A program made the position numbers and the translations under genes. A stretch of 64,000 bases of DNA from NCBI GenBank assembly GCA_015523565.1, contig WAKA01000095.1, positions 18,383 through 82,382 on the forward strand. Reading direction: 5' to 3'. Below the pieces are notes generated by a model. The model was not told the DNA's origin. It did no database searches and saw only the letters and a list, made by a program, of their open reading frames with translations. Every line of letters begins with the position of its first letter. The first letter of the stretch is position 1. The stretch comes from Candidatus Heimdallarchaeota archaeon. GTDB taxonomy: Archaea; Asgardarchaeota; Heimdallarchaeia; Heimdallarchaeales; Kariarchaeaceae. Shown here in pieces: positions 34,007 to 47,052 of this stretch.

Positions 34007-35020
34007 ATGCATTTTATGTCATTGGTATTGGCGATATTAAAAGCAGTGTTTTTTTTGATTGTATTGGCTCTCTCATCAGAACTATTGGCAAAAGGCGCTG
34101 AAATTTTGGAAGATCGTTTTGGTGCTGGATTTGTTGGATCTGTTATTTTGGGTTTTATAACTATGTTGCCAGAACTGATTTTTGTGCTAATTGCAGTTAA
34201 GGCAAGTGAAGTCGACGTTGCTCTTGGATCGGCAATCGGGGGCAATATTCTTCTTTTCACTTTTGGTCTTGGTCTTGTGATTCTACTTGCATTTTGGAAA
34301 CATGGACAAGCAATTCAAATTTCACGACTATTACGGGATGACCTTGCCTATTTATTTGTCTCTTCAATCATTATACTCATTTTTGCATTTGATCATAAAT
34401 TTCAATTATTAGATGGATTAATCCTGATTGGAATTTATCTTGTTTTTATCATTCATCAATATTGGGAGACTAAAAAATATCCAATGGGGTATCATCCTGA
34501 TGACAAACAGTATTCCAAAACAATTGAAAATGCAAATATGGATAAAACTGAAAAAAAGAACATGAAGCAGAGTATCTTTTATTTTATTATTGGTGGTGTT
34601 GGTATTCTAGTTGCCGCGGAACCATTTGTTGAAAGTCTTGTCGAAATATCATTTGAAACAGGAATTCCTGCCTTATTTCTTTCATTGATAATTTCTCCAC
34701 TTGCCTCTGAAATGCCTGAAAAAATATCTGCATTGATATTAACAATCAAATCAATGACTGGAGCTGAAATGGCTGTCGCTAATTTTATAGGGTCAAAAAT
34801 TCAGGCAAATTCGCTATTATTTGGAGCAATGATTGTTTATTTTTTCTATTTAAATGATTCTGCATTTCCAGTAGGTGATTCTTTTATTGATATCATGATC
34901 ACAATTCTTGTAACTATTTTGGGGGTTTATGTTTTCCTTGATCTCAAACTAAACAAAAAAGAGGGTATTCTCGTTTTCATACTTTACATTTTATCGCTTA
35001 TTGTTTTATATTTCTTCTAA
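34007..35020 (+). CDS. Ca2+/cation antiporter (CaCA, YrbG/NCX-like)
   Basis: Two alpha-repeat motifs are present: GSAIGGNILLFTFGLG and VANFIGSKIQANSLLFG. They are separated by a hydrophilic loop, and there are about 10 TM helices. Confidence 0.7.
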   Translation: MHFMSLVLAILKAVFFLIVLALSSELLAKGAEILEDRFGAGFVGSVILGFITMLPELIFVLIAVKASEVDVALGSAIGGNILLFTFGLGLVILLAFWKHGQAIQISRLLRDDLAYLFVSSIIILIFAFDHKFQLLDGLILIGIYLVFIIHQYWETKKYPMGYHPDDKQYSKTIENANMDKTEKKNMKQSIFYFIIGGVGILVAAEPFVESLVEISFETGIPALFLSLIISPLASEMPEKISALILTIKSMTGAEMAVANFIGSKIQANSLLFGAMIVYFFYLNDSAFPVGDSFIDIMITILVTILGVYVFLDLKLNKKEGILVFILYILSLIVLYFF

Positions 35021-35071
35021 AATTCAACTTATGATAGAATCTATTTTATCTTAATTCCCTTAACAAATGAT

Positions 35072-35989
35072 GTGAACAAAATAGCTTTAATTGGTTCGAA
35101 GGGCAGCGGTAAAAATACATTCATTAATATTTTTGCAGGTGACAACCGGGTCTTCTCCAACGAAAATCATTTAATGGCAATTTGGACGCTAAATATACAA
35201 AATAATGAATTTTTGATTTATGAAATGGAAAATGAAACCTTGAATCAAAATGTGAGTGTTCTTAACACATGCACTGGTTTCATCATAATTATTGACACTC
35301 CAACGATGGAATTTGACAATGACAAAGAGATCATTTCATTTTTAATCAACAAATATCCTTCACGGTCTTTTCTAATTATCTTGAATAAGATAGACCAAAT
35401 TTTTAACAATCAAATTGATTTGTCTTTTTTTGAGTGGTTAACTAATTTGAAATCAGACAATATCCAAATAATGGAAACAAGTCTTGCCTACAAATTGGAT
35501 GTCCCTAAAATCCAAAAGTGGTTCACCCAACTGAAACCAGTCATAGATGTAAATAATTTGGATTTGGTATTTTATAAACTTGGAAAAAATGGTCCAAAAA
35601 ATATTTGTTTTCAATTTGACAAAATATCTTTTGGGTCAGAAGAAAAAAATATAGAGTTTTTAGAGGAATTCATGATCAATACCTCAATTCAATTGACTCA
35701 AGGCGAGGCGTATTCCAAGGGAATTTTTATTACTCCTGCGGGAAGAGTAAATAGTTTCCGTGCTATAAATATGGTTTGGAGGATGAAAGATCCCAGCCCT
35801 GAGAAAGACGAACGTTTGAATGAAGGATTATTTTTTCTATCGATCTTTCTTCCAAGTGATTCTCCGCTATTTTCAATTCCATATTATGAACTAGATGTAT
35901 ACTTTAGTAAATTATCCTTTGATGAGCAAAAGGGGTCAAAGGAATTTGTTTATTCTTTATTGAACGATTTTTTTTCTCAATTGATTTAA
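35072..35989 (+). CDS. Divergent small-GTPase-like domain (deviant G1/G3) fused to an uncharacterised C-terminal domain
   Basis: G1 reads GSKGSGKNT, with Asn where Ser/Thr is expected. G3 reads IIIDTPTM, with no DxxG Gly and no Gln. G4 (LNKID) and a G5-like ETSLA are intact. The C-terminal roughly 145 aa are similar to the C-terminus of the response regulator at 42553..43506. The start is GTG. Confidence 0.6.
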   Translation: MNKIALIGSKGSGKNTFINIFAGDNRVFSNENHLMAIWTLNIQNNEFLIYEMENETLNQNVSVLNTCTGFIIIIDTPTMEFDNDKEIISFLINKYPSRSFLIILNKIDQIFNNQIDLSFFEWLTNLKSDNIQIMETSLAYKLDVPKIQKWFTQLKPVIDVNNLDLVFYKLGKNGPKNICFQFDKISFGSEEKNIEFLEEFMINTSIQLTQGEAYSKGIFITPAGRVNSFRAINMVWRMKDPSPEKDERLNEGLFFLSIFLPSDSPLFSIPYYELDVYFSKLSFDEQKGSKEFVYSLLNDFFSQLI

Positions 35990-36083
35990 ACCAATGTCAA
36001 TCTCTATTCATTATTTCCATATTTTTCGTAATGGAAAGAAAAAAGGTTTTCAATATTGATGTTTTGTTGATATTTGAAGACAC

Positions 36084-36599
36084 ATGGTCACAGCATACAA
36101 AATACTTGTTATTGGGGATGGTGCAGTAGGAAAGACAAGCATTGCCACAAGATATACCACTGGCGGTTTCAAAGAAAGCCATTTAATGACTGTTGGGGCA
36201 AACTTCATGTTAAAGACATTAAATATAGACGGAAAAAGTGTAAAATTAAGTATTTGGGATACCGCAGGTCAAGAAAAGTTCAGGAAAGTTGTTGAATCGT
36301 ACTATAAAGGGGGAAAGGGAGTTCTCATCTGCTTTGCAATCAATGATCGTCGTTCTTTTGAGGCACTTGATTATTGGTATTCAAGTACACAAAAACAATT
36401 GGGTACCAAAGCAAAATATGTTTTAGTTGGAAACAAAAGTGACCTTGAAGATAGCAGAGTGGTTTCCAGAGAAGAAGCTGAAAAATGGGCTGAAGAACAT
36501 AACATGAAATACTTTGAAACTTCAGCCTTACTGAATAAAAACATCTCAGATGTTTTTGAACATATCACCAAATTAATACTATCAAGCGAGGAAAATTAG
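36084..36599 (+). CDS. Rab/Ras-family small GTPase
   Basis: All G motifs are canonical: G1 GDGAVGKTS, a switch I Thr (MTVG), G3 WDTAGQE, G4 GNKSD and G5 ETSAL. It is 171 aa and has no C-terminal Cys prenylation motif (it ends SSEEN). Confidence 0.9.
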   Translation: MVTAYKILVIGDGAVGKTSIATRYTTGGFKESHLMTVGANFMLKTLNIDGKSVKLSIWDTAGQEKFRKVVESYYKGGKGVLICFAINDRRSFEALDYWYSSTQKQLGTKAKYVLVGNKSDLEDSRVVSREEAEKWAEEHNMKYFETSALLNKNISDVFEHITKLILSSEEN

Positions 36600-36601
36600 A
36601 G

Positions 36602-37894
36602 ATGTCGGTCAATGAGGAAACTTCAACTCAAGAAATTGAAATATCTGTAAATGAGCAGATAGAAAAAACATCAATTAATATTTACACATTTTCACTACTT
36701 GATGAGGAATCTGGCATTCCCATGAATTTTCCTTTAATCTTAGGTGGTGAAAATTTAATTACTGATGAAAATGCAAAACTGAAAGTTGAAGAGGCATTTG
36801 GTCAGTTAAACCTGCAAAGCTTGTTTGGGTTTGAAAGACATATATTCCGTTCAGTTGTGTATAGTACTTTCCACCTTCATAATATCAAAGATACATTGAC
36901 TCCTAATGTCTATATTCAAAAAGCCTTTACAAACAATGTTTATCTCTTCAATTACCTTTCAACTCCATATTCTGATTTGAATATTGAATCTACATTTGAA
37001 GAAATCGATTTTATGAGCAAGGCTTTATCGGGTGTTTTTAGGAGAGCTAGTGCACAAGAGAATTTAGGCGAAATAGATAATGATCAAAAATTTGAAATTT
37101 GCAAGGAAAACGTGGATCATCTTGGTGGTTTCATGCATTATAAAATTTTCACCGAAAGGGAATTTCGTGAACGGAGTTCTTCTGTTAAGAAAACTAGTTT
37201 AATGATTTTAGGATTATTTTTTGAACTAGAGGCTGTTGCTTCTGAATATCAATGTCTCGGCAACTGTGGACTTACTTTTTCAGAAAATGACGTTGCTTTC
37301 GAAGGAAAAGACCCTTTAGATGTTGGATGTCCTAATGGTGATGAAGAAGGTCTTGTATTGGCGCCTCCTGCCCTAAAACTAAAAACGGTACAATATGTTT
37401 TGCCTCCAAACACAAAATCTGTCTTCACTGAATTTTCTGAGGATGACTTGGATACTTCCCTATATCTTGGATATTTCACGGGGATTTTCATGCCTCGAAA
37501 TATCTCTTTGACTGTAAACAGATTGGCACCTTCACATTTTCAAGATTTGGTTTCAATTCCAAGACAGGCATTCTATTCAAACAAAATCAATTTTGAGGAT
37601 TATGTCAAGATTGATTGCAATTACCGTATTGAAAACAATAAAATCATTGTATTTGCAAGCATTTCTGATTCAAGGTATAGTCAAAGCAAACATGAAGAAA
37701 ATCTTGTTTCAAGTCTTTCTTCAGTAACCCTGAATCGTGATATCGTTGAAGGCTTCAAAAAGGGATATTCTCTGGAAAAAATTATAAGAGGAAGCATTCT
37801 CAATGATTGGAAAATGAGCGAGAAAATTAAAGTTGACGAAATAGGAAAGTATCCGACTCTTTTGGATATTCCAATTCAAAAAGGTGACGCATAA
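36602..37894 (+). CDS. Hypothetical protein, possible N-terminal longin/roadblock-like domain; translationally coupled to the small GTPase gene
   Basis: It starts 2 nt after the GTPase stop. The N-terminal pattern is INIYTFSLLDEESGIPMNFPLILG ... NVYLFNYLST ... FEEIDFMSKALSGVF, a beta-beta-alpha-beta-beta-beta-alpha-like order. I recognise no family. Confidence 0.5.
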   Translation: MSVNEETSTQEIEISVNEQIEKTSINIYTFSLLDEESGIPMNFPLILGGENLITDENAKLKVEEAFGQLNLQSLFGFERHIFRSVVYSTFHLHNIKDTLTPNVYIQKAFTNNVYLFNYLSTPYSDLNIESTFEEIDFMSKALSGVFRRASAQENLGEIDNDQKFEICKENVDHLGGFMHYKIFTEREFRERSSSVKKTSLMILGLFFELEAVASEYQCLGNCGLTFSENDVAFEGKDPLDVGCPNGDEEGLVLAPPALKLKTVQYVLPPNTKSVFTEFSEDDLDTSLYLGYFTGIFMPRNISLTVNRLAPSHFQDLVSIPRQAFYSNKINFEDYVKIDCNYRIENNKIIVFASISDSRYSQSKHEENLVSSLSSVTLNRDIVEGFKKGYSLEKIIRGSILNDWKMSEKIKVDEIGKYPTLLDIPIQKGDA

Positions 37895-39282
37895 TGGGTC
37901 TGCTACGAGAAACACAAGAAGCAATTGCAAATGAAATCAATAAGACCTTTAGCTCTTTAGCCGCAAAAATAGACGTATTTCAAATCACACAAGATTCTTA
38001 TGTTGAATCTTTAATTCCTAAACTTCAACCGTTTTTCCCCCATTTGGATGATGTAACATTGAAACAAGTCGCTGCACTTTATGGGATTTGCCTAACGGAT
38101 GAATCATTAAGGGATTATACCCCTCAAGGGTTTGCGGAGGATGTTGCATTTCTTAATGAAATAATCCAGGAAAACGAAAACAAGAGTGAAACAGAGCCAG
38201 GGGCACCTACTGAAGAAGAAATTGACGAAGAAAATGATGATGAGATCAAGTCGAAAGAGGATTTGAAATCAGTTCCTTCTTTGGAGGATCAGGGATATGA
38301 AAATTGGTCTGATCGACTTCAAAAGGCAACAGCAGAACAATCCCCCCTAATTCGGGGATTAACAGCTTATTATCAATCCAACATTGATATTTTTAATTTT
38401 ATTACCGCTTTAACAAATGATATTGTCCTGCATAATGTAAATCAAAGAATTGAATTGGCCATCTCTTCCATTTTAATTCGTGAACACATAATTCCATTAT
38501 TGGATCGATTATATTCATTGTATCTTAATTCTGGAATTGACATAGACTTACGTTTCTTAATAGCACAAATACAATATGCTCTGGAAACATATCTTGACAA
38601 TTCCGTTGAGTTTAAAAATTTCAAGAAAAGGTTTGATGAACTAAAGCAGGTTTATCCTCTTGGGAAAGGTGCTGACTTATATTGGGACATGTCTAAGCTT
38701 CTTGTTTACGATAAATATTATGAACCTTTGAAAAAGATGCTTGAACCAATTATAAATGATCAAATTCGTGAAAGGGAAGAATCTGCCAAGGCAATCAAGA
38801 ATATTTTGGACGCACCGAAACCCCGTCAGGGGAGCACTGAATCAATTCGGTCACAAGTGGATAGCCTGATTTTTGAGAGTGTTCGATTTGGTCGTCCTTT
38901 CCAAGGGGAGCAAAGAATTAAGGCACAGAGACTTATTGCCACAGTTCTTAAACGTATGGCTCTCGAAGAATTTGGGAAACAGGATATCCCACACATGGAA
39001 AAGTACAAAGAATATTTCATGAAAGAATTCTTTGAACCTATAATGAAGGAATATCCGCAGTTTCTACTTCCGTTTATTGATTTTCGTCTATATCGTGATT
39101 TTGCAGAAGACCCTCTTGCACATTTCGAAAAAAACAAGGATTATATCCTAAACCAATTTTGGTTCAAAATGCGAAAAATGGGATATGTTCCACGTGGCAC
39201 CCCGAATCAAATTGCAGCGGCATTTGCAGGATTGTTGCAGGACGTTCTTAATGATCCAAGGGTCAAATCATTTGATGCGTAG
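37894..39282 (+). CDS. Hypothetical all-alpha protein with an acidic insert (462 aa)
   Basis: Its start overlaps the upstream stop (TAATG). It has helical composition and an E/D-rich segment (EEEIDEENDDE). I recognise no family. Confidence 0.5.
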   Translation: MGLLRETQEAIANEINKTFSSLAAKIDVFQITQDSYVESLIPKLQPFFPHLDDVTLKQVAALYGICLTDESLRDYTPQGFAEDVAFLNEIIQENENKSETEPGAPTEEEIDEENDDEIKSKEDLKSVPSLEDQGYENWSDRLQKATAEQSPLIRGLTAYYQSNIDIFNFITALTNDIVLHNVNQRIELAISSILIREHIIPLLDRLYSLYLNSGIDIDLRFLIAQIQYALETYLDNSVEFKNFKKRFDELKQVYPLGKGADLYWDMSKLLVYDKYYEPLKKMLEPIINDQIREREESAKAIKNILDAPKPRQGSTESIRSQVDSLIFESVRFGRPFQGEQRIKAQRLIATVLKRMALEEFGKQDIPHMEKYKEYFMKEFFEPIMKEYPQFLLPFIDFRLYRDFAEDPLAHFEKNKDYILNQFWFKMRKMGYVPRGTPNQIAAAFAGLLQDVLNDPRVKSFDA

Positions 39283-39356
39283 TTTTATTGTCAATTTCCT
39301 CATAAAATGTAAACTGAAAAGGAATTCTTAATTTATGACCTTTCTATTCAAATAAT

Positions 39357-41270
39357 GTGGTTATTGAAAATTATGTAACAATACTCCGGGGAAATGAAAA
39401 ACAAATAAATTTTGAAGACCCTGGGAGTTATTCCGTAATTTCTAAAAATCCTGAATTTGGTGAATCTGTTATATCTACATTGAAAAATATTTTTGGAACC
39501 TCGATTATATCATTGGAAAGTTTTCAAAAAATCAATATTGAAAGTTATGATGATTACTTGGGTCCTGTTTTTTTTGATCCATATTATTTTGTGTTTATAG
39601 GGCAGTTTTCTTCATTGACAATAATCGCAATTAATAAAAATTATCCATATAATGCCGATTGGATTTTGCAATCTGTAGAATTGCATTTGAATCATAACCG
39701 CCCAATTTCTTTCAATAGTCTTCAAGAAATGCGTTATGAATTTCTTGATATTTGTACTTCTCCAATTTATGACGATACTACAGATAGTTATAATGATTTG
39801 TTTGCGACATTTCCTCCCAGTAATTTTCTCAATTCAATTATTGGTGAATCAAAAATCACCAACAATATTTTAAGTGACACAATTGATGTAACCAATGCAA
39901 TAGAGATAATTGAATTTTTCCTTTCACAAATTTATCGATCTGACAACAATCATGGACATATCAAAAATTGGCTAGAGAAAATCCATCAGGTATTTCAAGA
40001 ACATTTACTTCCCAATTTGACTCAAAACCCAGAAATAATGTTAATTCTTCTTAATTTTTATGATGCACTTATATTGTTTTCTCCACCGCTGATTTCCCTC
40101 CCTATGATTATTTCTTTCTTGAAAAAGGTACTGAGTTTGGAAGAAATTCAAAAACATCCTTCAGTTCAATATGTGTTAACACTCCAAAAGGCTTTCTTAA
40201 CTAGGGATTCATTACCTCCCTTTGAAATTCATAAAAGATCAATCCCTGAAAGTTATAAACTTATCCCCTATTTTCTTGAAGTACTCAAGAAAGAAAACAT
40301 ATCACAAGAAAACTTCAATAAGATTCAACAATCCATTTCCCCAGAAATATTTTACCGTGGTTATTTTCAGTTAATGCAATACATTGGTGATGAATTGTTT
40401 CGTCAATGCAGATATTCTGTTGCTGAAATCTACTATTCTGAATTAAGGCAAAAGATCCTGGTAAAAGAATCAAATTTTCCCCTTAAGCGAATTATTGATT
40501 CAAAGATTTTTTTCTCGAAACAGGGGATTTTTAATCTATATGTGAAAACTTCAATCCTTCATTACAATATTCATCAATTTGATAAGGCAATGGATTTTGC
40601 TTGGTCTGCAATCAGGATAGGATTAAAGACCATTCAATTTGCAATAGAAAACTCTGTGTCTCCAAGCACCCTGATAGATTCACTTTTCAACAATTTTCTT
40701 CAAATAAAAGAGTCTTTATTGGCAGAGGAAAGGGAAATGAATCCTGTTATTGAGTTAAAACTTGATGAACTCTATACAGACCTTATGGAAATAAAAAATT
40801 TGGATGAATTGCTCGAAAAGATTAATGTTCACCAAGAATCCTTTGCATTCTTAATGCCACAAACTCCCCCAAAATTTTTGTTCCTTACACCAGATGGAAG
40901 ATTGTTATATTCTGTAACTGCCAATTATGACCTTGAAAACAGCGAAGAGGAAACTGAATCACATTTAATGGCTGGTGTATTGACTGCAATACGCACTATT
41001 TTCTTGGAGGCTTCATTTTCAGGAAGTGGAAATGTAAAAGAGATCGATGCAGGTGATACAACCCTATACATTGAAGCAAGAGATTCTGTAGTTGTAGTCG
41101 TCTCATCAGTCAATCTTGATCAAGAACTGAAAAATTTTGCAAATTGGATAGCCAATGAGATTCAGCTCAATTACAGTGAGATCATTGACAATTGGGATGG
41201 GCGAATGCTCTCATTGGAACCCATTGTCAAGTTCATTATTCAAAGCATTAAAGAAAAATTATTGGACTAG
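39357..41270 (+). CDS. Hypothetical large protein (637 aa): TPR-like helical middle and a roadblock/longin-like C-terminal domain
   Basis: The C-terminus reads FLFLTPDGRLLYSV....SHLMAGVLTAIRTIFLEASFSG.GNVKEIDAGDTTLYIEARDSVVVVVSS. This has the roadblock-like order strand-strand-helix-strand-strand-strand. The start is GTG. Confidence 0.5.
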   Translation: MVIENYVTILRGNEKQINFEDPGSYSVISKNPEFGESVISTLKNIFGTSIISLESFQKINIESYDDYLGPVFFDPYYFVFIGQFSSLTIIAINKNYPYNADWILQSVELHLNHNRPISFNSLQEMRYEFLDICTSPIYDDTTDSYNDLFATFPPSNFLNSIIGESKITNNILSDTIDVTNAIEIIEFFLSQIYRSDNNHGHIKNWLEKIHQVFQEHLLPNLTQNPEIMLILLNFYDALILFSPPLISLPMIISFLKKVLSLEEIQKHPSVQYVLTLQKAFLTRDSLPPFEIHKRSIPESYKLIPYFLEVLKKENISQENFNKIQQSISPEIFYRGYFQLMQYIGDELFRQCRYSVAEIYYSELRQKILVKESNFPLKRIIDSKIFFSKQGIFNLYVKTSILHYNIHQFDKAMDFAWSAIRIGLKTIQFAIENSVSPSTLIDSLFNNFLQIKESLLAEEREMNPVIELKLDELYTDLMEIKNLDELLEKINVHQESFAFLMPQTPPKFLFLTPDGRLLYSVTANYDLENSEEETESHLMAGVLTAIRTIFLEASFSGSGNVKEIDAGDTTLYIEARDSVVVVVSSVNLDQELKNFANWIANEIQLNYSEIIDNWDGRMLSLEPIVKFIIQSIKEKLLD

Positions 41271-42044
41271 TTAGATCACAAAAATCTCATGAATTTCTTG
41301 CAAGGCAGTTAAATTCCTAATTTTTATCCCTCCTCCTATTTTCATCCGCAAATTTGGTGTAGATACCAATAATTTTGGACCCATGTTCTCCAAATTGACC
41401 TTGATTTCTTGTCTGATTTGCAAGCCTCTCAGTCCCTTTTTTACATCTTCCCCAACAAATTCAATATAATCAAGCCCTGAAAATCCCGCAATTTCATGCT
41501 TTGTAGCTATTCTTAAACTATTTATTTGTTCATATTTGGAAAATGCTTTTGAATTTTCAAGTGCACGAATTCTATATTTTTTTACTCCCGCATTTTCAAA
41601 AATTTTTTGGGTTCCCTTGTTTCTTAAACTTTCCAGAATTATTCCATGTTTTGGGAAAAAGAACACCACGTCCCAAAAATCCCAATTCATTTTTAACTTG
41701 TCTTTGATTGCACTTCCCTTTTTAAAATCAGTAAGGCAGACAATTCTTGGTTTTTGAAGTAAAACAGTTTTGGTTCCTAAAATTTGTACCTTGACTTTTT
41801 CAATTAGATCTGCTGCATTTCCTTCCTCTTTGAAAGACATTAAATTGAATTCGTCACAAAAAAGCCGATGGAACAGGAAAAGCTTCCAAATTCGATTGGA
41901 TATGCCTCTTTCTTTTATATTTTCATTTATTGCTTCGTTAAACTCTCTTGCTTCTCTATTGATATCTAATGATTCAAATATCTCTGTTGGCACACATTTC
42001 TGAGCTATATTGATGACTTTCCAATAAAGGGATTGTTGTTTCAT
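41271..42044 (-). CDS. Hypothetical protein (257 aa)
   Basis: It is a long ORF abutting the stop of the convergent gene. I recognise no motif. Confidence 0.4.
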   Translation of the reverse strand: MKQQSLYWKVINIAQKCVPTEIFESLDINREAREFNEAINENIKERGISNRIWKLFLFHRLFCDEFNLMSFKEEGNAADLIEKVKVQILGTKTVLLQKPRIVCLTDFKKGSAIKDKLKMNWDFWDVVFFFPKHGIILESLRNKGTQKIFENAGVKKYRIRALENSKAFSKYEQINSLRIATKHEIAGFSGLDYIEFVGEDVKKGLRGLQIRQEIKVNLENMGPKLLVSTPNLRMKIGGGIKIRNLTALQEIHEIFVI

Positions 42045-42054
42045 TTATTCATCA

Positions 42055-42468
42055 CTATTTAAAAATAAACATGTCCTCCTCAATTACTCCATTTACCTTC
42101 CCTGAAGAAATATATTTCTTCAATATTTTGAGAAGATTTTCCTTTGCCACACCAACTTCTGTTGCAAATTCCCCAATGTTGAAATTTTCTGAACTTTTGA
42201 GTTTATCTTCAACCAATTGTTTTTTGGATTTCCCTTGAAAATCTCCTTTTGTTTTTCCCATGGATCCTGTTATGTTTTTTCCACATTTCGGACAGTCCCA
42301 TGTAGCCATGATTGTAATGGTTACATTACCGTCCTTATCAGGCATGGGGGACACCAAGGTCCATTGCTTTTTTGTTGGAACATCGGCAGGCATAAAGGTA
42401 TGTCCACATTTTTTGCATTTGACTGGTTTGACTTTAGGTTTTGTACTTGTCTTTGTTCTTTTACCCAT
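42055..42468 (-). CDS. Basic zinc-ribbon protein with a possible C-terminal winged-helix-like region
   Basis: Two Cys pairs, CKKCGH ... CPKCGK, form a Zn ribbon. The N-terminus is Lys-rich. The C-terminus (IGEFATEVGVAKENLLKILKKYISSGKV) is HTH-like. Confidence 0.45.
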   Translation of the reverse strand: MGKRTKTSTKPKVKPVKCKKCGHTFMPADVPTKKQWTLVSPMPDKDGNVTITIMATWDCPKCGKNITGSMGKTKGDFQGKSKKQLVEDKLKSSENFNIGEFATEVGVAKENLLKILKKYISSGKVNGVIEEDMFIFK

Positions 42469-42552: not shown

Positions 42553-43506
42553 TCACTTATTGAATTTGCTTTTCAAAAGCAGTTTCTTCTTTACTTCCTT
42601 AATAATTTCATCCAATAGGCTCTTCTTGACTTGAACCCAATCTACTGATTTCAATTCGTTCGGCATTTGTGACATGACTTGGTAAAACATTTTTTCTAAT
42701 GTGAGAATTTCTGGCAATAACGGCATGTGCTCCTTTTCTATAAAAAACACAATTTGAAAATATCCATTTTTCAATCTCGGATCTTCTGCCTCTTTATCCA
42801 TTAACCTAAAACTGAAAACAAGTAGAATAAAATTCTGAAAAAGACCTGATTGGTAAATGGCAAGACCTTCACTATACTCCTCTCCTTGACCTGCTGAAAA
42901 TAAAGTGTACATACCGAGTTCAAGAAGTGCATCATCCAATTTGTCTTCAGTCAGAAGATCAAGCTTGTCAAAATCTTTGGTTAGAAGTTTGGGACCAATT
43001 GTGTCCATCTTAAAGACTGCCATGGGAAATTTATCTTCTCTAAACGCCCTTTTGATCAACTCTGAATTTGCTTTTATCAGTTCAATGACATGAAGGGCTG
43101 ATGAAGTGGTTTTAATGAGATCTCCCTCTAAGTTCTCTCCCTTTAAAATATATGAGACTCCCTTTTCTACACACTCCAATACCATCCTAATGTCGTCTTG
43201 CCCTGAAAGCATAATTATGTACATCTCTGGATATTTCGACTGTAAATAATCGATTGTATCGATGGTTGTCTCCCCATGCAAATAGATGTCCAAAAACAAA
43301 ATGTCTGGCTTAAACTTCTCAATTCCATCATAAATGTCTTTTTTTCGGGTTATGTTCATGATCTCAAATTTATTTGGATAATGTTTTTCAAGGAACATTG
43401 CCAAAAGATAATAGTCCATGTCATTATCCTCTACACTTATGACTCGAAATTTCTCATCCTGTTGAAATTTTTCAAACTGATCTTTTGAGATAGGTTTGAA
43501 TTCCAT
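42553..43506 (-). CDS. Response regulator: receiver domain plus an uncharacterised C-terminal output domain
   Basis: REC motifs are the acidic pair VISVEDND, the phospho-acceptor PDILFLDIYL, IIMLSGQ and YILKG. The C-terminal roughly 165 aa resemble the C-terminus of the GTPase-like fusion at 35072..35989. Confidence 0.8.
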   Translation of the reverse strand: MEFKPISKDQFEKFQQDEKFRVISVEDNDMDYYLLAMFLEKHYPNKFEIMNITRKKDIYDGIEKFKPDILFLDIYLHGETTIDTIDYLQSKYPEMYIIMLSGQDDIRMVLECVEKGVSYILKGENLEGDLIKTTSSALHVIELIKANSELIKRAFREDKFPMAVFKMDTIGPKLLTKDFDKLDLLTEDKLDDALLELGMYTLFSAGQGEEYSEGLAIYQSGLFQNFILLVFSFRLMDKEAEDPRLKNGYFQIVFFIEKEHMPLLPEILTLEKMFYQVMSQMPNELKSVDWVQVKKSLLDEIIKEVKKKLLLKSKFNK

Positions 43507-43559
43507 TATTATTATCTTCCATTGATTTTATCCCATAAAAAAGCTCCTATTTCAGATTA

Positions 43560-43889
43560 TCAGATAGAGGAAAGCTCTTCTACCAAATATACTAATTCAT
43601 CAAGTAATACCTTCTCTTCTTCTGTAACCTTTCCATCACTTTCTGCTATTTTCTCACACTTTTTTACGATTTCAGTTTCCATTTTCTTCAATTGTTCTTT
43701 GTCAACCATGCCTGTGTTCAATGAAGATATTATCACATTCAAATAATTATGCAACGCCTCGTTAATTGAACTTAATATTGCTTTTTCTTCATTTGTAACA
43801 ACCTCATCTGCCATGGCCAAATCAATCAGTTTTTCCATAATCCTAGACGCTGATTGAACCTTTTCCATTACGTATCCTTGGTCAACCAT
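43560..43889 (-). CDS. Small helical protein, tentatively TerB-like
   Basis: It has two repeats of an acidic helix motif: ADEVVTNEEKAILSSI and SDGKVTEEEKVLLDEL. These resemble TerB/DjlA-N type domains, but the assignment is weak. Confidence 0.35.
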   Translation of the reverse strand: MVDQGYVMEKVQSASRIMEKLIDLAMADEVVTNEEKAILSSINEALHNYLNVIISSLNTGMVDKEQLKKMETEIVKKCEKIAESDGKVTEEEKVLLDELVYLVEELSSI

Positions 43890-43946
43890 CCATTTTTTTT
43901 TATTCTGCTAATTTATTAATCTCTTTATGTGATGGTGAATAAATCC

Positions 43947-45503
43947 CTAATTTTCAATTAATGCTAAAAATGAACTTACTGTGATTGGAAATAAAAAGAC
44001 AATCCCCTCAATGAAAATTAATATTCCACTAGAGAATTGATTAATCATTAGATTATATCCAAGACCTATCAAACCCAAACCAAGCAAGGCAAATATTATT
44101 GAATTTCTAAACAAATGGACATTTCTGTTCCAGACTGATTTTGGATTTGAAGGCATCCCATATTTCAAAAAGCCCAAGATGCTTGCAAACATTATCAATA
44201 CTGTTGTAGAAATGCCAATAATTGTCATAATTGGGATCAATCTCCATTTATAGGATACTCTGGTTGTTTCTTCTTCCCTCAATGATTTGAAAGCAAAAAC
44301 TAAAATCACAAGATATGTCATTAATTCAAACAACGGCAACAAGATGTAAGTAGACACAGTTATTTGATTTATTTGGAGTGACGGTCTGACCAAGTTAATT
44401 CCTATTCCTCCCAAAAATGAGACTATTAGCCCATAAAGAAAAAGTAACGGAACAATGAATGCAATTCCAATGGTGGTTAAAACATCAAGTTTCTGTACTA
44501 CAGACAAGTTCTTGGAAAAAATCAGGTTTTTTAGATTTACACGGATTGATTGTCCCGCCCCAAGTGCCCATCTCCAAAGCTGTGAAATTTGTTCCTTATA
44601 AGTTAGGGGAGATTTTCCCCATGACCCAATTCTTTTGACTAATTTTCCATAATAACCATGTACCATTAATTTTATTGTGGTATCCGTATCCTCTGTAATG
44701 GAATCATAGGAGAAACCATTTATTGACTTTATTGCCGATGTTTTGAACATTGCTGTTGAACCTACAAAAAGGACAGTTTTCCTATTGTTTTTTGGAGTTT
44801 CAATGACTTCAAAATTTTGAAGATATAATAATGCAGAGAAATATGAACTTATTGTCTTCAATCTATTAAAGCGTTTTATTGCTTGCACAAAAGCGAGATT
44901 TTCATCATTTGTCTTCTTGAATTCGGATAACAGAATGTCTATTAAGTCTTTGACTGGAACTTGATCATAATCTAAAATGATAAAATAAGGATCTTTCACT
45001 TTTTGAAGGAGGATATTTACCATCCCTGCCTTGAATTTTTTTTGTGTTCCTGAATGAAAATAGAAAAGGCCATAATTATTGCACAATTCCTTTATTTTCA
45101 ATTTCAGTTCCTGTTCTGTTGTGTCATCTCCTACCATGACCGTCAATTTGTTTCTTGGATAAGTTAAATTTCCAATAGCCTTTACTGTCTCCTCAAAATA
45201 TGAGAGATTTGGGTTTTTAATGGGAATCAAGATTGTAACTCTCTCGTCATAATCATGATTGGGATTTGCTGTTTCGATGTTATTCCCATTTCTTCCCCAA
45301 AAAAGAAAAATGTTGATCGTTGCAATTTGAAGAAAAATTAATGATTCAATAGCCAACGTGATCCAATTGATTCTTTTTGCTATCTCGTCTGTTATTTTTC
45401 TGATTGGTTGAATTGAGAAATAAAGGTGTATGCCAAACCCAAAAATGATTGATGAAATCCAAAAAAATGCAAGCCATTTCTCTTTTTTATTTGATCTTTT
45501 CAA
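43947..45503 (-). CDS. Processive family-2 glycosyltransferase (cellulose/chitin/hyaluronan-synthase-like), integral membrane
   Basis: GT2 motifs appear in order: ILIPIKN, VGDDTT, ILDYDQVP, ITEDTDTT and the Q(Q/R)xRW-type QLWRW. TM helices lie both N-terminal and C-terminal of the catalytic domain. Confidence 0.85.
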   Translation of the reverse strand: MKRSNKKEKWLAFFWISSIIFGFGIHLYFSIQPIRKITDEIAKRINWITLAIESLIFLQIATINIFLFWGRNGNNIETANPNHDYDERVTILIPIKNPNLSYFEETVKAIGNLTYPRNKLTVMVGDDTTEQELKLKIKELCNNYGLFYFHSGTQKKFKAGMVNILLQKVKDPYFIILDYDQVPVKDLIDILLSEFKKTNDENLAFVQAIKRFNRLKTISSYFSALLYLQNFEVIETPKNNRKTVLFVGSTAMFKTSAIKSINGFSYDSITEDTDTTIKLMVHGYYGKLVKRIGSWGKSPLTYKEQISQLWRWALGAGQSIRVNLKNLIFSKNLSVVQKLDVLTTIGIAFIVPLLFLYGLIVSFLGGIGINLVRPSLQINQITVSTYILLPLFELMTYLVILVFAFKSLREEETTRVSYKWRLIPIMTIIGISTTVLIMFASILGFLKYGMPSNPKSVWNRNVHLFRNSIIFALLGLGLIGLGYNLMINQFSSGILIFIEGIVFLFPITVSSFLALIEN

Positions 45504-45564
45504 CCCACTTCAAACTTTCCTAAAATGTTATTTATATCTAATTGATGGTAACGGCTTAAAATCA

Positions 45565-47052
45565 TTATTCAACAAGATTATATGGCAGGGAAAAGACAAA
45601 GGTGGTTCCACTCTCATTGACATTTGGTCTACACTCAATGCTTCCTCCATGTATCTCAATTATTTTTTTCACAAGCGCTAGTCCAATGCCTGTACCCTCT
45701 TGATCTGATATCCCCAATTTTCTGAACATCTCAAAAATCTCATCTTTTTTCTTTATTGGTATCCCTATTCCATTGTCTTTACAATAATATATTATCCATT
45801 CCCCTCTTTTCTCTCCCCAAATCTTAATGTGTGGTGGTACCCCTTTACGACTGAATTTAATCGCATTTTGGATAAGATTTTGCCATACCTGCATAACAAG
45901 GGAAATGTCTCCGAAAGAATATGGGATGTCTTCAGAAACTTCAATTTTTGCATTTGTGTTGTCTATTCTTTCTTGGAGACTTACTGTCGTTACAAATTCA
46001 ATTATTTTTTTCATGTCCAATTTTTGATAGGTGATTTTTTGACTATCAATTCGAGAATAATTGACCAATGCATTTATCATATTATAAAGATGTTTCGCCC
46101 CATCGACCATGATTTTTATCCATTCTTTTTCAGTATTCGTTAACCTATCGGTTGCTGAGTTTTGCAACAATTCCCCAAATGAAACAATCCTTCTTGCAGG
46201 ATCTTTGAGATCATGGGAAACAATTGAGACAAAACGATCCAGTTTTTTGTTAAGAACTTCCAGTTTTTTGTTTGCCTCTTTCAATTCCTGATTTTTTTGT
46301 TTTAGTGCTCTCTTTTGGTCTTCAATCATGGAAACGTCCATGAAATTCAATTCAACCAATAAAATTTCATCATCAAATATAATGGGTGTCAATATCCATT
46401 GCATTGTCTTGTTCCCTAATTTTTCTGTAAACCACATTGACTTTTTTTTCGTAATTGCCAAATTCAGATATTCCTCAAGCTTATGTTTTAAATGATCTTC
46501 AAACAAATTAATAATTTCCTTTCCAAGAACCTCCTCTTTTTTCAGTCCATTCAAATATTTCAACCCTGTTCGGTTTACGAAAGTTACAAAATTTTCAGGA
46601 TTAAAAAGTATCAGTCCAGAAGAAATATTGTCAAGCAATATCTGATCCACATGTATCGTTTCCTTGAGTTGGTCTATTTGCTCTTCAACAAGAGTAAAAT
46701 CATTTCCGATAAAGGCAACCTGCGATTTGTTGCCATTTACTAATTGAAAAATAAGCACCTCTATTTTTTTTTCAGGTCCATTTTTGTCTGAAATGACAAT
46801 TTGAATTGCATTTTCATGATTTATGGTCTGAATGGATTGTTCTATGCAATTCCTGTCTAAAAGCTCTTTCCAATATTTTTGATCTTCTCTTATTGCTTCA
46901 AGAGCCGTTTTTAATTCCTCATCCGCACAAATTATCTGGTTCGTCTCTTTATCAACTATTGCAATTAACCTGTCAAATTTATAACTCAATTTGGATGGGG
47001 TGATTTTTATTATTCCCTTGTCATAATCAAACTTTTTTGTATGGGAACTCAA
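45565..47052 (-). CDS. Sensor histidine kinase (cytoplasmic, PAS-containing)
   Basis: Motifs are the H-box VSIVSHDLKDPARRI, the N-box QNLIQNAIKFS, G1 DNGIGI and G2 GTGIGLALVKKIIEIHGG. A PAS-like region (LILFNPENFVTFVNRTGLKYL) is followed by a coiled coil before the H-box. No TM helix is present. Confidence 0.9.
   Translation of the reverse strand: MSSHTKKFDYDKGIIKITPSKLSYKFDRLIAIVDKETNQIICADEELKTALEAIREDQKYWKELLDRNCIEQSIQTINHENAIQIVISDKNGPEKKIEVLIFQLVNGNKSQVAFIGNDFTLVEEQIDQLKETIHVDQILLDNISSGLILFNPENFVTFVNRTGLKYLNGLKKEEVLGKEIINLFEDHLKHKLEEYLNLAITKKKSMWFTEKLGNKTMQWILTPIIFDDEILLVELNFMDVSMIEDQKRALKQKNQELKEANKKLEVLNKKLDRFVSIVSHDLKDPARRIVSFGELLQNSATDRLTNTEKEWIKIMVDGAKHLYNMINALVNYSRIDSQKITYQKLDMKKIIEFVTTVSLQERIDNTNAKIEVSEDIPYSFGDISLVMQVWQNLIQNAIKFSRKGVPPHIKIWGEKRGEWIIYYCKDNGIGIPIKKKDEIFEMFRKLGISDQEGTGIGLALVKKIIEIHGGSIECRPNVNESGTTFVFSLPYNLVE

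Follow-up and report, generated by a model that had tools for sequence, protein, structure and literature searches.

A conserved Asgard gene cluster links a Rab-like small GTPase to two lineage-specific protein families in a candidate switch module

An operon that encodes a Rab-like GTPase together with a DENN protein and a LAMTOR1-like roadblock protein has been reported from most Asgard lineages (Liu et al. 2020/2021, bioRxiv 10.1101/2020.10.19.343400), so that the concept of a GTPase/regulator operon is not new. In the ArvABC/ArcoABC (OapABC) systems, an archaeal small GTPase is accompanied by two conserved partners, one of them with a zinc ribbon, which have been proposed to act as GEF and GAP in the control of a membrane- or division-related process (PMC10927574; bioRxiv 10.64898/2026.07.23.738820). 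A GP motif together with an arginine finger has been described for GAP longins, and GP-motif longins are known from Asgard archaea (PMC12290439). Furthermore, NPRL2-like longin domains have been found fused to two-component domains (Liu et al., bioRxiv 10.1101/2020.10.19.343400). As a rule, Asgard GTPases are not encoded in operons with regulators (Tran et al., PMC10933270), and for this reason a tight GTPase operon is informative; an archaeal GTPase paired with candidate regulators or effectors is both rare and testable.

Here we describe such a pairing in a 64,000-nucleotide stretch of DNA from Candidatus Heimdallarchaeota archaeon (the window). Five co-oriented genes occupy positions 35072-41270 on the plus strand (Table 1), as the first-pass annotation had listed them, and the translation of each is identical to the public gene call. 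The junctions were likewise read as it had described: the GTPase gene ends in TAG, followed by 2 nt and an ATG, and P3 and P4 meet in TAATG, where stop and start overlap. The spacer between P4 and P5 is short, as had been noted, but counts 74 nt and not 75. Near the cluster, a PAS histidine kinase and a response regulator are encoded on the opposite strand. A literature search turned up no published account of these genes as a set, in agreement with its earlier listing as uncharacterised.

Table 1. Positions and predicted features of the genes of the cluster and its surroundings within the window.
Gene	Length	Position	Strand	Features
P1	305 aa	35072-35989	+	GTG start; degenerate Arf-like GTPase domain and C-terminal ~145-aa domain
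G (GTPase)	171 aa	36084-36599	+	Rab-like Ras-family small GTPase
P3	430 aa	36602-37894	+	Asgard-only family; two α/β sandwich domains and zinc ribbon
P4	462 aa	37894-39282	+	Asgard-only family; probably α-helical, acidic linker
P5	637 aa	39357-41270	+	GTG start; α/β domain, TPR-like solenoid, α/β domain
Response regulator	317 aa	42553-43506	-	REC and C-terminal GP-motif domain; Pfam Response_reg 43 bits
TerB-like protein	109 aa	43560-43889	-	Pfam TerB 31.7 bits (cutoff 24.4)

Judged by its sequence, G is a bona fide Ras-family GTPase of Rab-like type, and its earlier description as canonical holds. It matches the Pfam Ras model at 192 bits (cutoff 21.6) and TIGR00231 at 88.6 bits, and all of its G motifs are intact, with GDGAVGKT (G1), DTAGQE (G3), NKSD (G4) and ETSAL (G5) readable in the sequence. 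The top PDB sequence matches are Rabs throughout (Rab21 at 1e-40, Sec4, Rab10, Ypt1 and Rab8), and the Thorarchaeota Rab 7ezb is matched at 3e-36. The protein ends in ...LILSSEEN, and due to the absence of a C-terminal Cys it carries no prenylation signal. Orthologs of G lie directly upstream of a P3 homolog in eight loci (188-308 bits). These linked GTPases form one group, scoring 188-308 bits among themselves, whereas the remaining Ras-like GTPases of these loci reach 87-116 bits.

The linkage extends well beyond the window. In each of the 18 loci where the junction is seen, P3 and P4 lie side by side in the same orientation, spaced by -53 to +5 nt, and their order spans Heimdall-, Hod- and Hermodarchaeota. 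The GTPase gene abuts the pair in eight of eight Heimdall-type loci, at -8 to +4 nt from P3 in seven of them. Gene order is kept among genomes at 28-54% protein identity, and the arrangement is far beyond chance. These counts and the start/stop overlaps support a conserved linkage to the GTPase and the translational coupling that had been suggested. About seven genomes (the window, L001, L004, L008, L018/L019, L021 and L020) have P5 linked to the module, on either strand, and since it stays linked in both orientations, selection for proximity is suggested beyond shared ancestry. In a second P3-P4 clade (L003, L022), a Ras-like GTPase gene adjoins the pair and is divergently transcribed, an independent instance of the association.

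P3 and P4 represent two new Asgard-only families, with no Pfam match and no PDB sequence match placing either one. P3 has 30 homologs, none with Pfam domains and all from Heimdall-, Hod- and Hermodarchaeota; the family profile and Pfam searches returned zinc-ribbon matches only. The AF2 model (pLDDT 85.7, pTM 0.85), analysed by DSSP, predicts an α0-ββ-α-βββ-αα domain at about residues 16-184 (D1) and a second α/β sandwich domain at about residues 200-396 (D2), into which a zinc ribbon is inserted; in this copy the ribbon has lost its fourth Cys and is degenerate (CLGNC...CPNGD). D1 contains 19 of the 23 invariant residues of the family, a clustering that suggests a binding or catalytic surface. 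More specifically, only one helix separates β2 from β3 in D1, and two long helices close the domain at its C-terminus, as is typical of longins; in D2, several short helices stand between these two strands, a PAS-like feature. No Foldseek match to the model was significant: the best E-value (0.0098) fell on tandem PAS domains, the tandem PAS/LOV proteins (FixL, LOV histidine kinases, PpsR) lay at E 0.01-0.06 with probability ≤0.14 and TM ~0.1, longin chains at E 0.13-0.21, and chains of the FLCN complex and NPRL2 at E ~0.2. The model thus predicts two α/β domains with a longin-like strand order that Foldseek does not separate from tandem PAS domains. The N-terminal longin/roadblock-like pattern reported earlier for this protein is retained as strand order in a confident model and finds no significant structural match.

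P4 has 13 homologs, and the family invariably comes after P3. Residues ~1-95 make up its N-terminal domain and ~150-462 its C-terminal domain, with a variable, acidic low-complexity linker (~95-150) in between. The sole difference of an 809-aa homolog (P0044) is an expanded acidic repeat in this linker. The family has no consistent Pfam or PDB match; periodicity and composition weakly suggest that P4 is probably α-helical. The first-pass annotation had called the genes a longin/roadblock multi-protein set; P4 shows evidence of neither fold.

In P5, a TPR-like helical solenoid (~157-499) is flanked by two α/β domains, one N-terminal (1-133) and one C-terminal (506-636). The N-terminal one had been missed by the first-pass annotation. 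The TPR-like middle of P5 had been recognised correctly: a Pfam TPR model is matched by 14 of 27 relatives, and the profile of the family reaches PDB TPR proteins at 2e-35. The C-terminal domain has the strand order ββ-α-βββ-αα in the AF2 model of P5 (pLDDT 81.3, DSSP), family-invariant P501, G514, E551 and W613, a W-x-G motif and near-invariant D513 and R515, which form a 'DGR' in the β1-β2 loop. In the 38 relatives found, domains of this type also occur with TPR alone, as stand-alone proteins and inside large proteins. Longin proteins make up nearly the whole of the top 50 Foldseek matches of P5 (AP σ/μ, ζ/δ-COP, Sec22b, Mon1-Ccz1, Fuzzy, TRAPP Bet5/Trs23), including Fuzzy 7q3d_C (rmsd 3.9 Å) and the Mon1-Ccz1 chains 5ldd and 9lol. 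Nearly all have a probability of 1.00, at modest E-values of 2e-3 to 0.1 that the output does not assign to one or the other α/β domain. The predicted structure supports a longin-class fold in P5. The only roadblock chains in the list stand at ranks 42 and 47, Robl_LC7 matches neither P5 nor any other window gene, and two C-domains of the family give faint Fuz_longin_1 matches. The C-terminus had been called roadblock-like; an α/β domain of the longin/roadblock class it is, but longin fits better.

P1 was aptly described as a degenerate GTPase fusion. Its P-loop, GSKGSGKN, has Asn in place of Ser/Thr, DxxG is absent and NKID is kept; P1 itself gives weak P-loop/GTPase matches only, and its homologs match Pfam Arf at 39 bits in L010 (above cutoff) and 20.8 bits in L008. 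Homologs are found in L006, L008, L010 and L020, and P1 is an accessory part, upstream of the GTPase in the closer relatives only. Its C-domain carries an invariant Gly-Pro (G174-P175), invariant R237 and D240 and a D-x-R-L-x-x-G loop in the alignment, and shares 29% identity with that of the response regulator (E 5e-11). In this shared domain, the early, invariant Gly-Pro is followed 62-73 residues further on by conserved arginines. No Pfam, PDB or hhalign match ties this domain, whose fold is putative, to the GAP longin families or to the GP-motif Asgard longins. A response-regulator homolog occupies the same position in L018 (178 bits), and the protein is a possible signalling input. TerB-like homologs adjoin P5 homologs in L004 (13953-14285) and L008 (12504-12890), which ties the TerB-like protein only loosely to the module.

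We favour, at about even confidence, a conserved Asgard small-GTPase switch module in which P3-P4 would be the dedicated regulator, of GEF or GAP type, of the Rab-like GTPase. The GTPase is translationally coupled, and would be co-transcribed, with the lineage-specific P3 and P4, which most likely form a stoichiometric heterodimer, since their genes always form an overlapping pair. This heterodimer, built on α/β sandwich domains like eukaryotic longin-based regulators, would bind the GTPase directly and control its nucleotide state. P5 (longin, TPR, longin) would join as a third, facultative subunit or as an adaptor, with its longin-type domain(s) docking on the GTPase or on P3-P4 and its solenoid recruiting further partners, and P1 and the response regulator, which have the GP-motif domain in common, may provide accessory inputs. 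The model-based matches of P5 are longin subunits of GTPase-linked machines and count in favour of a GTPase module. P3 and P4 have no Pfam, PDB-sequence or profile-profile link to GEF or GAP families. A physical complex, a direction of regulation and an activity as GEF, GAP or effector are inferred, and so is the 'primordial GEF/GAP complex' proposed earlier.

P3-P4 occurs without an adjacent GTPase in four Hodarchaeota loci, three Hermodarchaeota loci and L023, and in all four Hodarchaeota loci a PLD-like gene is the conserved upstream neighbour instead. The pair therefore has a role independent of a linked GTPase gene, which fits an effector as well as a regulator. As P3 and P4 also show no resemblance to known GEF or GAP families, it is possible, though somewhat unlikely, that they make up an autonomous Asgard effector or output machine with a cellular task of its own, to which the GTPase was added upstream as an on/off switch in Heimdall-type lineages, with P5 as adaptor. 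Speaking for a regulator, characterised prokaryotic small-GTPase operons usually encode one beside the GTPase, as in MglA-MglB and ArvABC/ArcoABC (PMC10927574), and the P3 sandwich and the longin-class domains of P5 belong to the fold class of eukaryotic GTPase regulators. That the proteins act independently and their gene order is merely inherited among related MAGs seems most improbable. The GTPase-linked loci do come mostly from one broad, Heimdall-type lineage, and P5 varies in position and strand, but start/stop overlaps are kept at 45-54% protein identity between loci with wholly different flanking genes, P5 remains nearby despite inversions, and the second clade retains its divergently transcribed GTPase.

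The identity of P3 allows two further readings. As a tandem PAS-like sensor unrelated to longin regulators, P3 would relay a ligand or redox signal to the GTPase. This is suggested by its best Foldseek matches, the short helices of D2 and the nearby PAS histidine kinase and response regulator on the other strand, yet it is quite improbable given that those matches are not significant, that none of 28 P3 family members matches any PAS Pfam model at E≤1, that the helices of D1 follow the longin pattern, and that the kinase and regulator are not conserved beside the module in other lineages. It is very doubtful that the cluster is the published roadblock/GTPase/DENN operon with P3 and/or P4 as a highly diverged, FLCN-like longin-DENN protein. 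The published operon contains a Rab-like GTPase and was proposed to be FLCN-like, FLCN-complex and NPRL2 chains are among the matches of P3, and P3 and P4 together (α/β, α/β, helical) loosely recall the uDENN-DENN-dDENN order. However, at E≤1 none of the Pfam models for DENN, uDENN, dDENN or folliculin is matched by any of the 45 P3 and P4 family members, a small roadblock gene is not a constant neighbour, and that operon is reported from most Asgard lineages, as opposed to the three in which P3 was found.

Compared with known systems, the switch module proposed here shares with the operon of Liu et al., a proposed GEF-like module, a Rab-like (not Rag) small GTPase and neighbours with eukaryote-type regulator folds. 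It differs in the lack of DENN and roadblock matches among the 45 family members, in protein sizes and architectures and in its narrower phyletic range. ArvABC/ArcoABC similarly co-transcribes an archaeal small GTPase with two conserved partner genes, one with a zinc ribbon, but its GTPase is Arf/SRβ-related (Pfam MMR_HSR1 search) and not of the Ras/Rab family, and its partners are DUF2073 and DUF2072, which the P3 and P4 families do not match. In the Myxococcus polarity module MglA-MglB(-RomR/RomX), a Ras-like GTPase is encoded beside an α/β (roadblock) regulator and a REC-domain protein feeds the switch; MglB is a small roadblock homodimer, whereas the partners here are large, apparently heteromeric and unrelated in sequence. 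As proposed for the set described here, Mon1-Ccz1/Fuzzy-type longin sets are heteromeric Rab partners with repeated longin-class α/β domains. In contrast to them, P3 has two such domains rather than three, plus a zinc ribbon, and no significant sequence or structure match, and P4 is probably not a longin. Finally, the Gly-Pro and arginines of P1 and the response regulator resemble the GP motif and the arginine finger found in the longin GAPs FLCN-FNIP, GATOR1 NPRL2-NPRL3 and C9orf72-SMCR8, and the REC-plus-domain architecture of the response regulator agrees with the NPRL2-like longin/two-component fusions of Liu et al.

The five co-oriented genes proposed for this region were all recovered when the open reading frames of the window were translated. 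Together with three genes downstream they are identical to the public gene calls, in which none of the eight proteins bears a name. They encode a degenerate Arf-like GTPase with a C-terminal domain (P1), a Rab-like GTPase (G) and the larger proteins P3, P4 and P5; the module discussed below consists of G, P3 and P4, with P5 linked to it. An AT-rich spacer of 94 nt lies 5' of G. Read directly, the junctions agree with the first-pass annotation: the TAG stop codon of G is followed by 2 nt and the ATG of P3, and a TAATG overlap joins the P3 stop to the P4 start. The reported separation of P4 and P5 also stands, although the spacer measures 74 nt and not 75. Taken as a whole, the observation was confirmed and its interpretation as a GTPase-regulator set was supported in part.

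Features of the region and of loci (L001-L023) of related genomes that hold homologs
Feature	Location	Positions	Strand	Remarks
P1	window	35072-35989	+	305 aa, GTG start
G	window	36084-36599	+	171 aa
P3	window	36602-37894	+	430 aa
P4	window	37894-39282	+	462 aa
P5	window	39357-41270	+	637 aa, GTG start
P3 zinc ribbon	window	37240-37370		P3 residues ~214-256
P3 first α/β domain (D1), elements	P3 residues	β25-33, β40-48, α56-67, β80-91, β102-110, β113-121, α128-154, α160-184		AF2 model
P5 N-terminal α/β domain	P5 residues	1-133		AF2 model
P5 helical solenoid	P5 residues	157-499		AF2 model
P5 C-terminal ββ-α-βββ-αα domain	P5 residues	506-636		AF2 model
257-aa and 137-aa genes	window	41271-42468	-	uncharacterised; 137-aa protein with CxxC...CxxC; immediately convergent to P5
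257-aa and 137-aa genes, counterparts	L018	3509-4686		
Response regulator with GP-motif C-domain	window	42553-43506	-	
TerB-like protein	window	43560-43889	-	
GT2 cellulose-synthase-like glycosyltransferase	window	43947-45503	-	
PAS-HisKA-HATPase histidine kinase	window	45565-47052	-	
Na/Ca-exchanger gene, then P1-like gene	window	34007-35989		GTPase + GP-motif domain
Na/Ca-exchanger gene, then P1-like gene	L020	12023-13948		GTPase + GP-motif domain
Megasynthase, type I PKS or PUFA-synthase-like	window	10836-20567	+	single ORF, 3243 aa
PLD-like (PLDc_2) gene	L002	4374-6578		Hodarchaeota
PLD-like (PLDc_2) gene	L011	5-337		Hodarchaeota
PLD-like (PLDc_2) gene	L012	1054-3225		Hodarchaeota
PLD-like (PLDc_2) gene	L013	6096-7559		Hodarchaeota
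Stretches noted for GTPase genes or for response regulator + ~458-aa gene	L003	389-2777 and 3904-6184		soil clade
Stretch noted for GTPase genes or for response regulator + ~458-aa gene	L022	1047-3373		soil clade
Roadblock/LC7 protein, 287 aa	L023	5549-6412		clade of homolog P0023; Pfam 41.6 bits; no GTPase nearby
GTPase-like ORF, 55 aa	L001	7824-7991		

The identification of G as a Rab-like GTPase with motifs G1-G5 intact is borne out. It reaches 192 bits against the Pfam Ras model (PF00071, cutoff 21.6), its translation carries intact GDGAVGKT, DTAGQE, NKSD and ETSAL motifs, and its top 60 matches among PDB sequences (1e-40 to 1e-35), which include the Thorarchaeota Rab 7ezb, are all Rab/Ypt/Sec4 proteins. 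Judged by these PDB matches rather than by a tree, G appears nearest to Rabs and not to Ras, Rho, Arf or Ran. The C-terminal cysteine prenylation motif of eukaryotic Rabs is absent from G, whose sequence ends in ...KLILSSEEN, with no cysteine.

P1 alone gives weak P-loop and GTPase matches. Its relationship to GTPases is nonetheless clear, because the homolog in L010 exceeds the Pfam Arf threshold with 39 bits; L006, L008 and L010 all have a P1 homolog upstream of the GTPase. In the alignment, the P-loop reads GxxxxGKS in the homologs versus GKN in P1 of the window, the glycine of DxxG is missing from P1 and every aligned homolog, and N/TKxD is retained in all of them. P1 was therefore correctly described as a degenerate GTPase fusion.

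The relationship between this GTPase and its neighbors was assessed by mapping profile HMMs, built from our own alignments, onto 23 loci. P4 directly follows P3 in 18/18 loci that show the junction, with spacings of -53 to +5 nt. In all eight Heimdall-type loci, P3 is immediately preceded on the same strand by an orthologous Rab-like GTPase (188-308 bits), at a spacing of -8 to +4 nt in seven of them. In the remaining one, L001, a 55-aa GTPase fragment separates the GTPase from the P3 homolog; this ORF shares 43% identity with the Rab-like GTPase over the C-terminal third of the latter and looks like what is left of a GTPase that was duplicated in tandem. In these loci the linkage is conserved and translationally coupled. 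Since the genes flanking the module are completely different from lineage to lineage among the mapped loci, the conserved order reflects more than recent shared ancestry.

A GTPase accompanies the pair in a different arrangement in a separate soil clade (L003 and L022), where a Ras-like GTPase adjoins P3-P4 and is divergently transcribed. No adjacent GTPase was found at the pair in Hodarchaeota (4 loci), Hermodarchaeota (3 loci) or L023. The soil-clade loci are rich in GTPase genes, with three Ras/Arf-like GTPases in L003, and both keep a response regulator of ~296 aa followed by an uncharacterised gene of ~458 aa near P3-P4. A 668-aa gene convergent to the pair in the same two loci was considered as a remote P5 relative and discarded, with no detectable relationship. 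In 4/4 Hodarchaeota loci a PLD-like gene occupies the position upstream of P3-P4 that the GTPase holds in Heimdall-type loci; in L012 an inserted RRXRR-HNH gene separates it from the pair.

We collected 30 homologs of P3 and 13 of P4, and none of them bears a precomputed Pfam domain. When one genome of each species was scanned, P3 was found only in MAGs of Heimdallarchaeota, Hodarchaeota and Hermodarchaeota, all within the Asgard kingdom Promethearchaeati. By these searches, P3 and P4 are new families that are restricted to Asgard archaea and always occur together. Profile-profile comparison revealed no relationship of the P3, P4 and P5 families to one another or to the GP-motif domain shared by P1 and the response regulator.

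The AF2 model of P3, computed from a 28-sequence alignment, is confident (pLDDT 85.7, pTM 0.85) and contains two α/β domains. The first, D1 (about residues 16-184), follows the order α0-β-β-α-β-β-β-α-α with two long C-terminal helices, and 19/23 of the residues invariant in the family alignment fall within it; E63, Q68, N70, K107, N127, R148 and R186 make up an invariant patch of D1. The second, D2 (about residues 200-396), is another α/β sandwich; a zinc ribbon separates its first strands, and its last three strands are preceded by several short helices. Most P3 homologs show the ribbon as CxxxC...CPxC. It is degenerate in P3 of the window and its closest relatives (CLGNC...CPNGD, the fourth cysteine replaced by aspartate) and deleted altogether in the L003/L022 clade.

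Because the model is confident and shows two such domains, the assignment of P3 to a profilin-like α/β sandwich fold class, present twice, is well supported as a prediction. More specifically, the modeled strand and helix order of D1 matches that of longin domains. The N-terminal longin/roadblock pattern claimed for P3 therefore stands as to strand order but not as to a significant match in structure or sequence: a Foldseek search of the model against the PDB returned no matches at E≤0.001, and in Pfam and PDB profile searches with the family the zinc ribbon alone was matched. Longin-containing chains appear at E 0.13-0.21 and include 7q3e_B (CPLANE), 8dhb_I (FLCN complex), 8yqg_A (a Lokiarchaeota longin domain, prob 0.44) and 6ces_N (NPRL2). 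P3 may instead be PAS-like, as tandem PAS or LOV arrays head the Foldseek list at E 0.0098-0.06, but their TM-scores of about 0.1 and the same lack of matches at E≤0.001 speak against this assignment.

In P4, a variable acidic linker joins two conserved regions, one at either terminus. A Pfam scan of 17 members yielded no recurring family, and nothing was found with the family profile against the PDB. In hydrophobic periodicity and composition, P4 is nearer to the mostly helical P5 than to the strand-rich P3, by a method that was 62-75% accurate on calibration proteins. One homolog of 809 aa, P0044, has its acidic linker expanded to ~400 residues of near-perfect ~20-residue repeats (…EQGEDDLEESLENNLEKQS…). 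It was considered as a Rosetta-stone fusion and dismissed, the extra length being merely expanded acidic repeat; its OPA1_C Pfam match is likewise spurious, low-complexity noise from the same repeats.

For P5, a word-indexed search retrieved P5 alone, whereas an exhaustive HMMER search gave 38 relatives. The conserved core of the family is the C-terminal ~140 residues, a domain that is also found C-terminal to shorter TPR regions, on its own in proteins of 155-170 aa, and as part of two very large proteins. The TPR-like middle that had been proposed is confirmed at the family level: Pfam TPR models match 14/27 relatives (best 4e-7), the family profile matches consensus and natural TPR proteins in the PDB (2e-35 to 1e-4) at profile positions ~200-320, and the AF2 model (pLDDT 81.3) places a solenoid there. 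P5 of the window on its own gave no Pfam TPR match at E≤1.

DSSP analysis of the model shows the longin ββ-α-βββ-αα order in both terminal domains, and the N-terminal one constitutes a second longin-class domain. Almost all of the top 50 Foldseek matches are longin chains, nearly all with prob 1.00 and at E 2e-3 to 0.1; they refer to the whole model, as the tool does not report which α/β domain was matched. They comprise σ and μ subunits of AP-1/2/3/4, ζ/δ-COP, Fuzzy (rmsd 3.9 Å), Mon1-Ccz1, Sec22b (TMt 0.68), VAMP7 (0.58) and TRAPP Bet5/Trs23. In the model, P5 thus carries a longin fold, one that can be superposed on known longin domains. The C-terminus had been called roadblock-like. Its α/β domain is upheld, but its roadblock identity is not: roadblock chains (3l7h_B and 5y3a_I) rank 42 and 47, below longin chains, and Robl_LC7 was not matched in the family scans, including eight isolated C-domains, so that longin class is the better description. 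Two of these eight gave faint in-register Fuz_longin_1 matches (E 0.06 and 0.12, cutoff 26 bits), and the C-domain profile found no longin and nothing informative in the PDB. As longin and roadblock folds are related, the broader longin/roadblock class still holds.

A P5 homolog lies near the module on the same strand in the window, in L001 and in L018/L019, which belong to the same assembly as L006, and directly after P4 in L021. It is on the opposite strand in L004 and L008, 9 kb from a P4 homolog in L020, and absent within about 6.5 kb in L007. L018/L019 reproduce the layout of the window, down to the convergent genes for the 257-aa protein, the 137-aa protein and the response regulator; the first two keep their position (152 and 225 bits), and neither has a Pfam match. 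A TerB-like gene adjoins P5 in L004 and L008; in the window, 2.3 kb separate the two. The pair of a Na/Ca-exchanger gene and a P1-like gene is common to the window and L020, where a P5 homolog lies directly upstream with no GTPase/P3/P4 cassette between. This layout suggests mobility of the cassette with respect to P1 and P5.

Convergent with P5, the window carries a minus-strand gene run (42553-47052) from the response regulator to the histidine kinase, which may possibly provide a two-component input to the GTPase module. Farther away, the megasynthase ORF combines two KS, AT, four tandem ACP (PP-binding), KR and DH domains with a C-terminal phosphopantetheinyl transferase, and is unusual in an archaeal genome.

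Over its C-terminal ~145 residues, P1 is homologous to the C-terminal part of this response regulator (29% identity, E 5e-11). Among five sequences from P1, its homologs and the response regulator, the domain shows an invariant G174-P175, an invariant R237 in R-x-x-D and a conserved D-x-R-L-x-x-G loop. A GP motif ending the β1-β2 loop, together with an arginine finger, is the signature of GAP-type longins (FLCN, NPRL2, SMCR8, C9orf72) and is also reported for Heimdallarchaeial longins (PMC12290439); furthermore, Asgard archaea are reported to have fusions of NPRL2-like longin domains with two-component domains (Liu et al., bioRxiv 10.1101/2020.10.19.343400). The domain matched neither Pfam at E≤10 nor, as a profile, the PDB, and hhalign against an approximate sequence of the human NPRL2 N-terminus gave an uninformative probability of 0.2. 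From the motifs we infer both a suggestive resemblance to the GAP-type longin signature and the fold that would go with it.

The best-supported reading, predicted from gene context and models, is that the module is a dedicated GTPase switch with P3-P4 as partners. G would act together with an obligate heterodimer of P3 and P4 as its binding partner, P5 would be an adaptor of longin-TPR type, and accessory inputs would come from P1 and the response regulator, the two GP-motif fusions. P3-P4 may regulate G as a GEF or GAP, or may instead be regulated by G as an effector; the latter reading is kept alive by the occurrence of the pair without an adjacent GTPase in Hod- and Hermodarchaeota. We consider it unlikely that P3-P4, with P5 as third subunit, forms an unrecognised archaeal exchange or GTPase-activating complex of the multi-longin class for the Rab-like GTPase, be it a forerunner of eukaryotic regulators or an independent invention. 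If true, it would represent a prokaryotic forerunner of eukaryotic multi-longin Rab regulators (Mon1-Ccz1/CPLANE/TRAPP logic), or the same solution invented independently, among those Asgard lineages that stand closest to eukaryotes.

Dozens of Ras-superfamily GTPases are encoded in Asgard genomes, along with numerous longin and roadblock proteins. To our knowledge, almost none of these GTPases can be paired with longin or roadblock proteins. The present set is an exception, in which, across lineages including Heimdall- and Hodarchaeota, one orthologous Rab-like GTPase is translationally coupled to a fixed unknown pair and has a longin-TPR protein linked to it. Its main value is that one Asgard GTPase-partner relationship becomes directly testable, as three or four proteins make a small clonable set for direct binding, nucleotide-exchange and hydrolysis assays. 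If the pair is a regulator, it would show in what way Rab-type switches were under control before there was eukaryotic membrane trafficking; if an effector, it would be among the few known outputs of any Asgard small GTPase.

We compared the module with known systems. As a rule, the genes of Asgard GTPases do not share operons with those for roadblock, longin or TRAPPC3 proteins, so that GTPases are difficult to pair with GAPs or GEFs (Tran et al., PMC10933270), and we found no published description of the present gene set. RabGEFs of the tri-longin Mon1-Ccz1 type have two subunits with three longin domains each, which heterodimerise through LD1. P3-P4 does not fit this type: P3 has two α/β domains, and P4 shows no β-rich pattern by the weak periodicity estimate. 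The ArvABC/ArcoABC systems consist of an MglA/SRβ-like GTPase (PF01926), DUF2073 (PF09846) and DUF2072 (PF09845) (PMC10927574). They resemble the module as archaeal GTPase operons with a zinc-ribbon partner, but the present GTPase belongs to PF00071 Ras, the partner families are different, and neither DUF was matched in the P3 and P4 family scans; identity with these systems was therefore rejected on domain content. One published Asgard operon, which combines a Rab-like GTPase with a LAMTOR1-like roadblock protein and a DENN protein, has been proposed to be FLCN-like (Liu et al., bioRxiv 10.1101/2020.10.19.343400). DENN, uDENN and folliculin Pfam models had no match at E≤1 in 28 P3 and 17 P4 members, and no small roadblock gene is conserved beside the module in the mapped loci, the Robl_LC7 gene of L023, two genes upstream of P3-P4, being the only one. 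With neither DENN nor roadblock matches in the 45 members, identity with this operon was likewise rejected on domain content, at the sensitivity of Pfam models. The partners differ and the phyletic range of the present module is narrower, but both are built around a Rab-like GTPase and follow the same logic.
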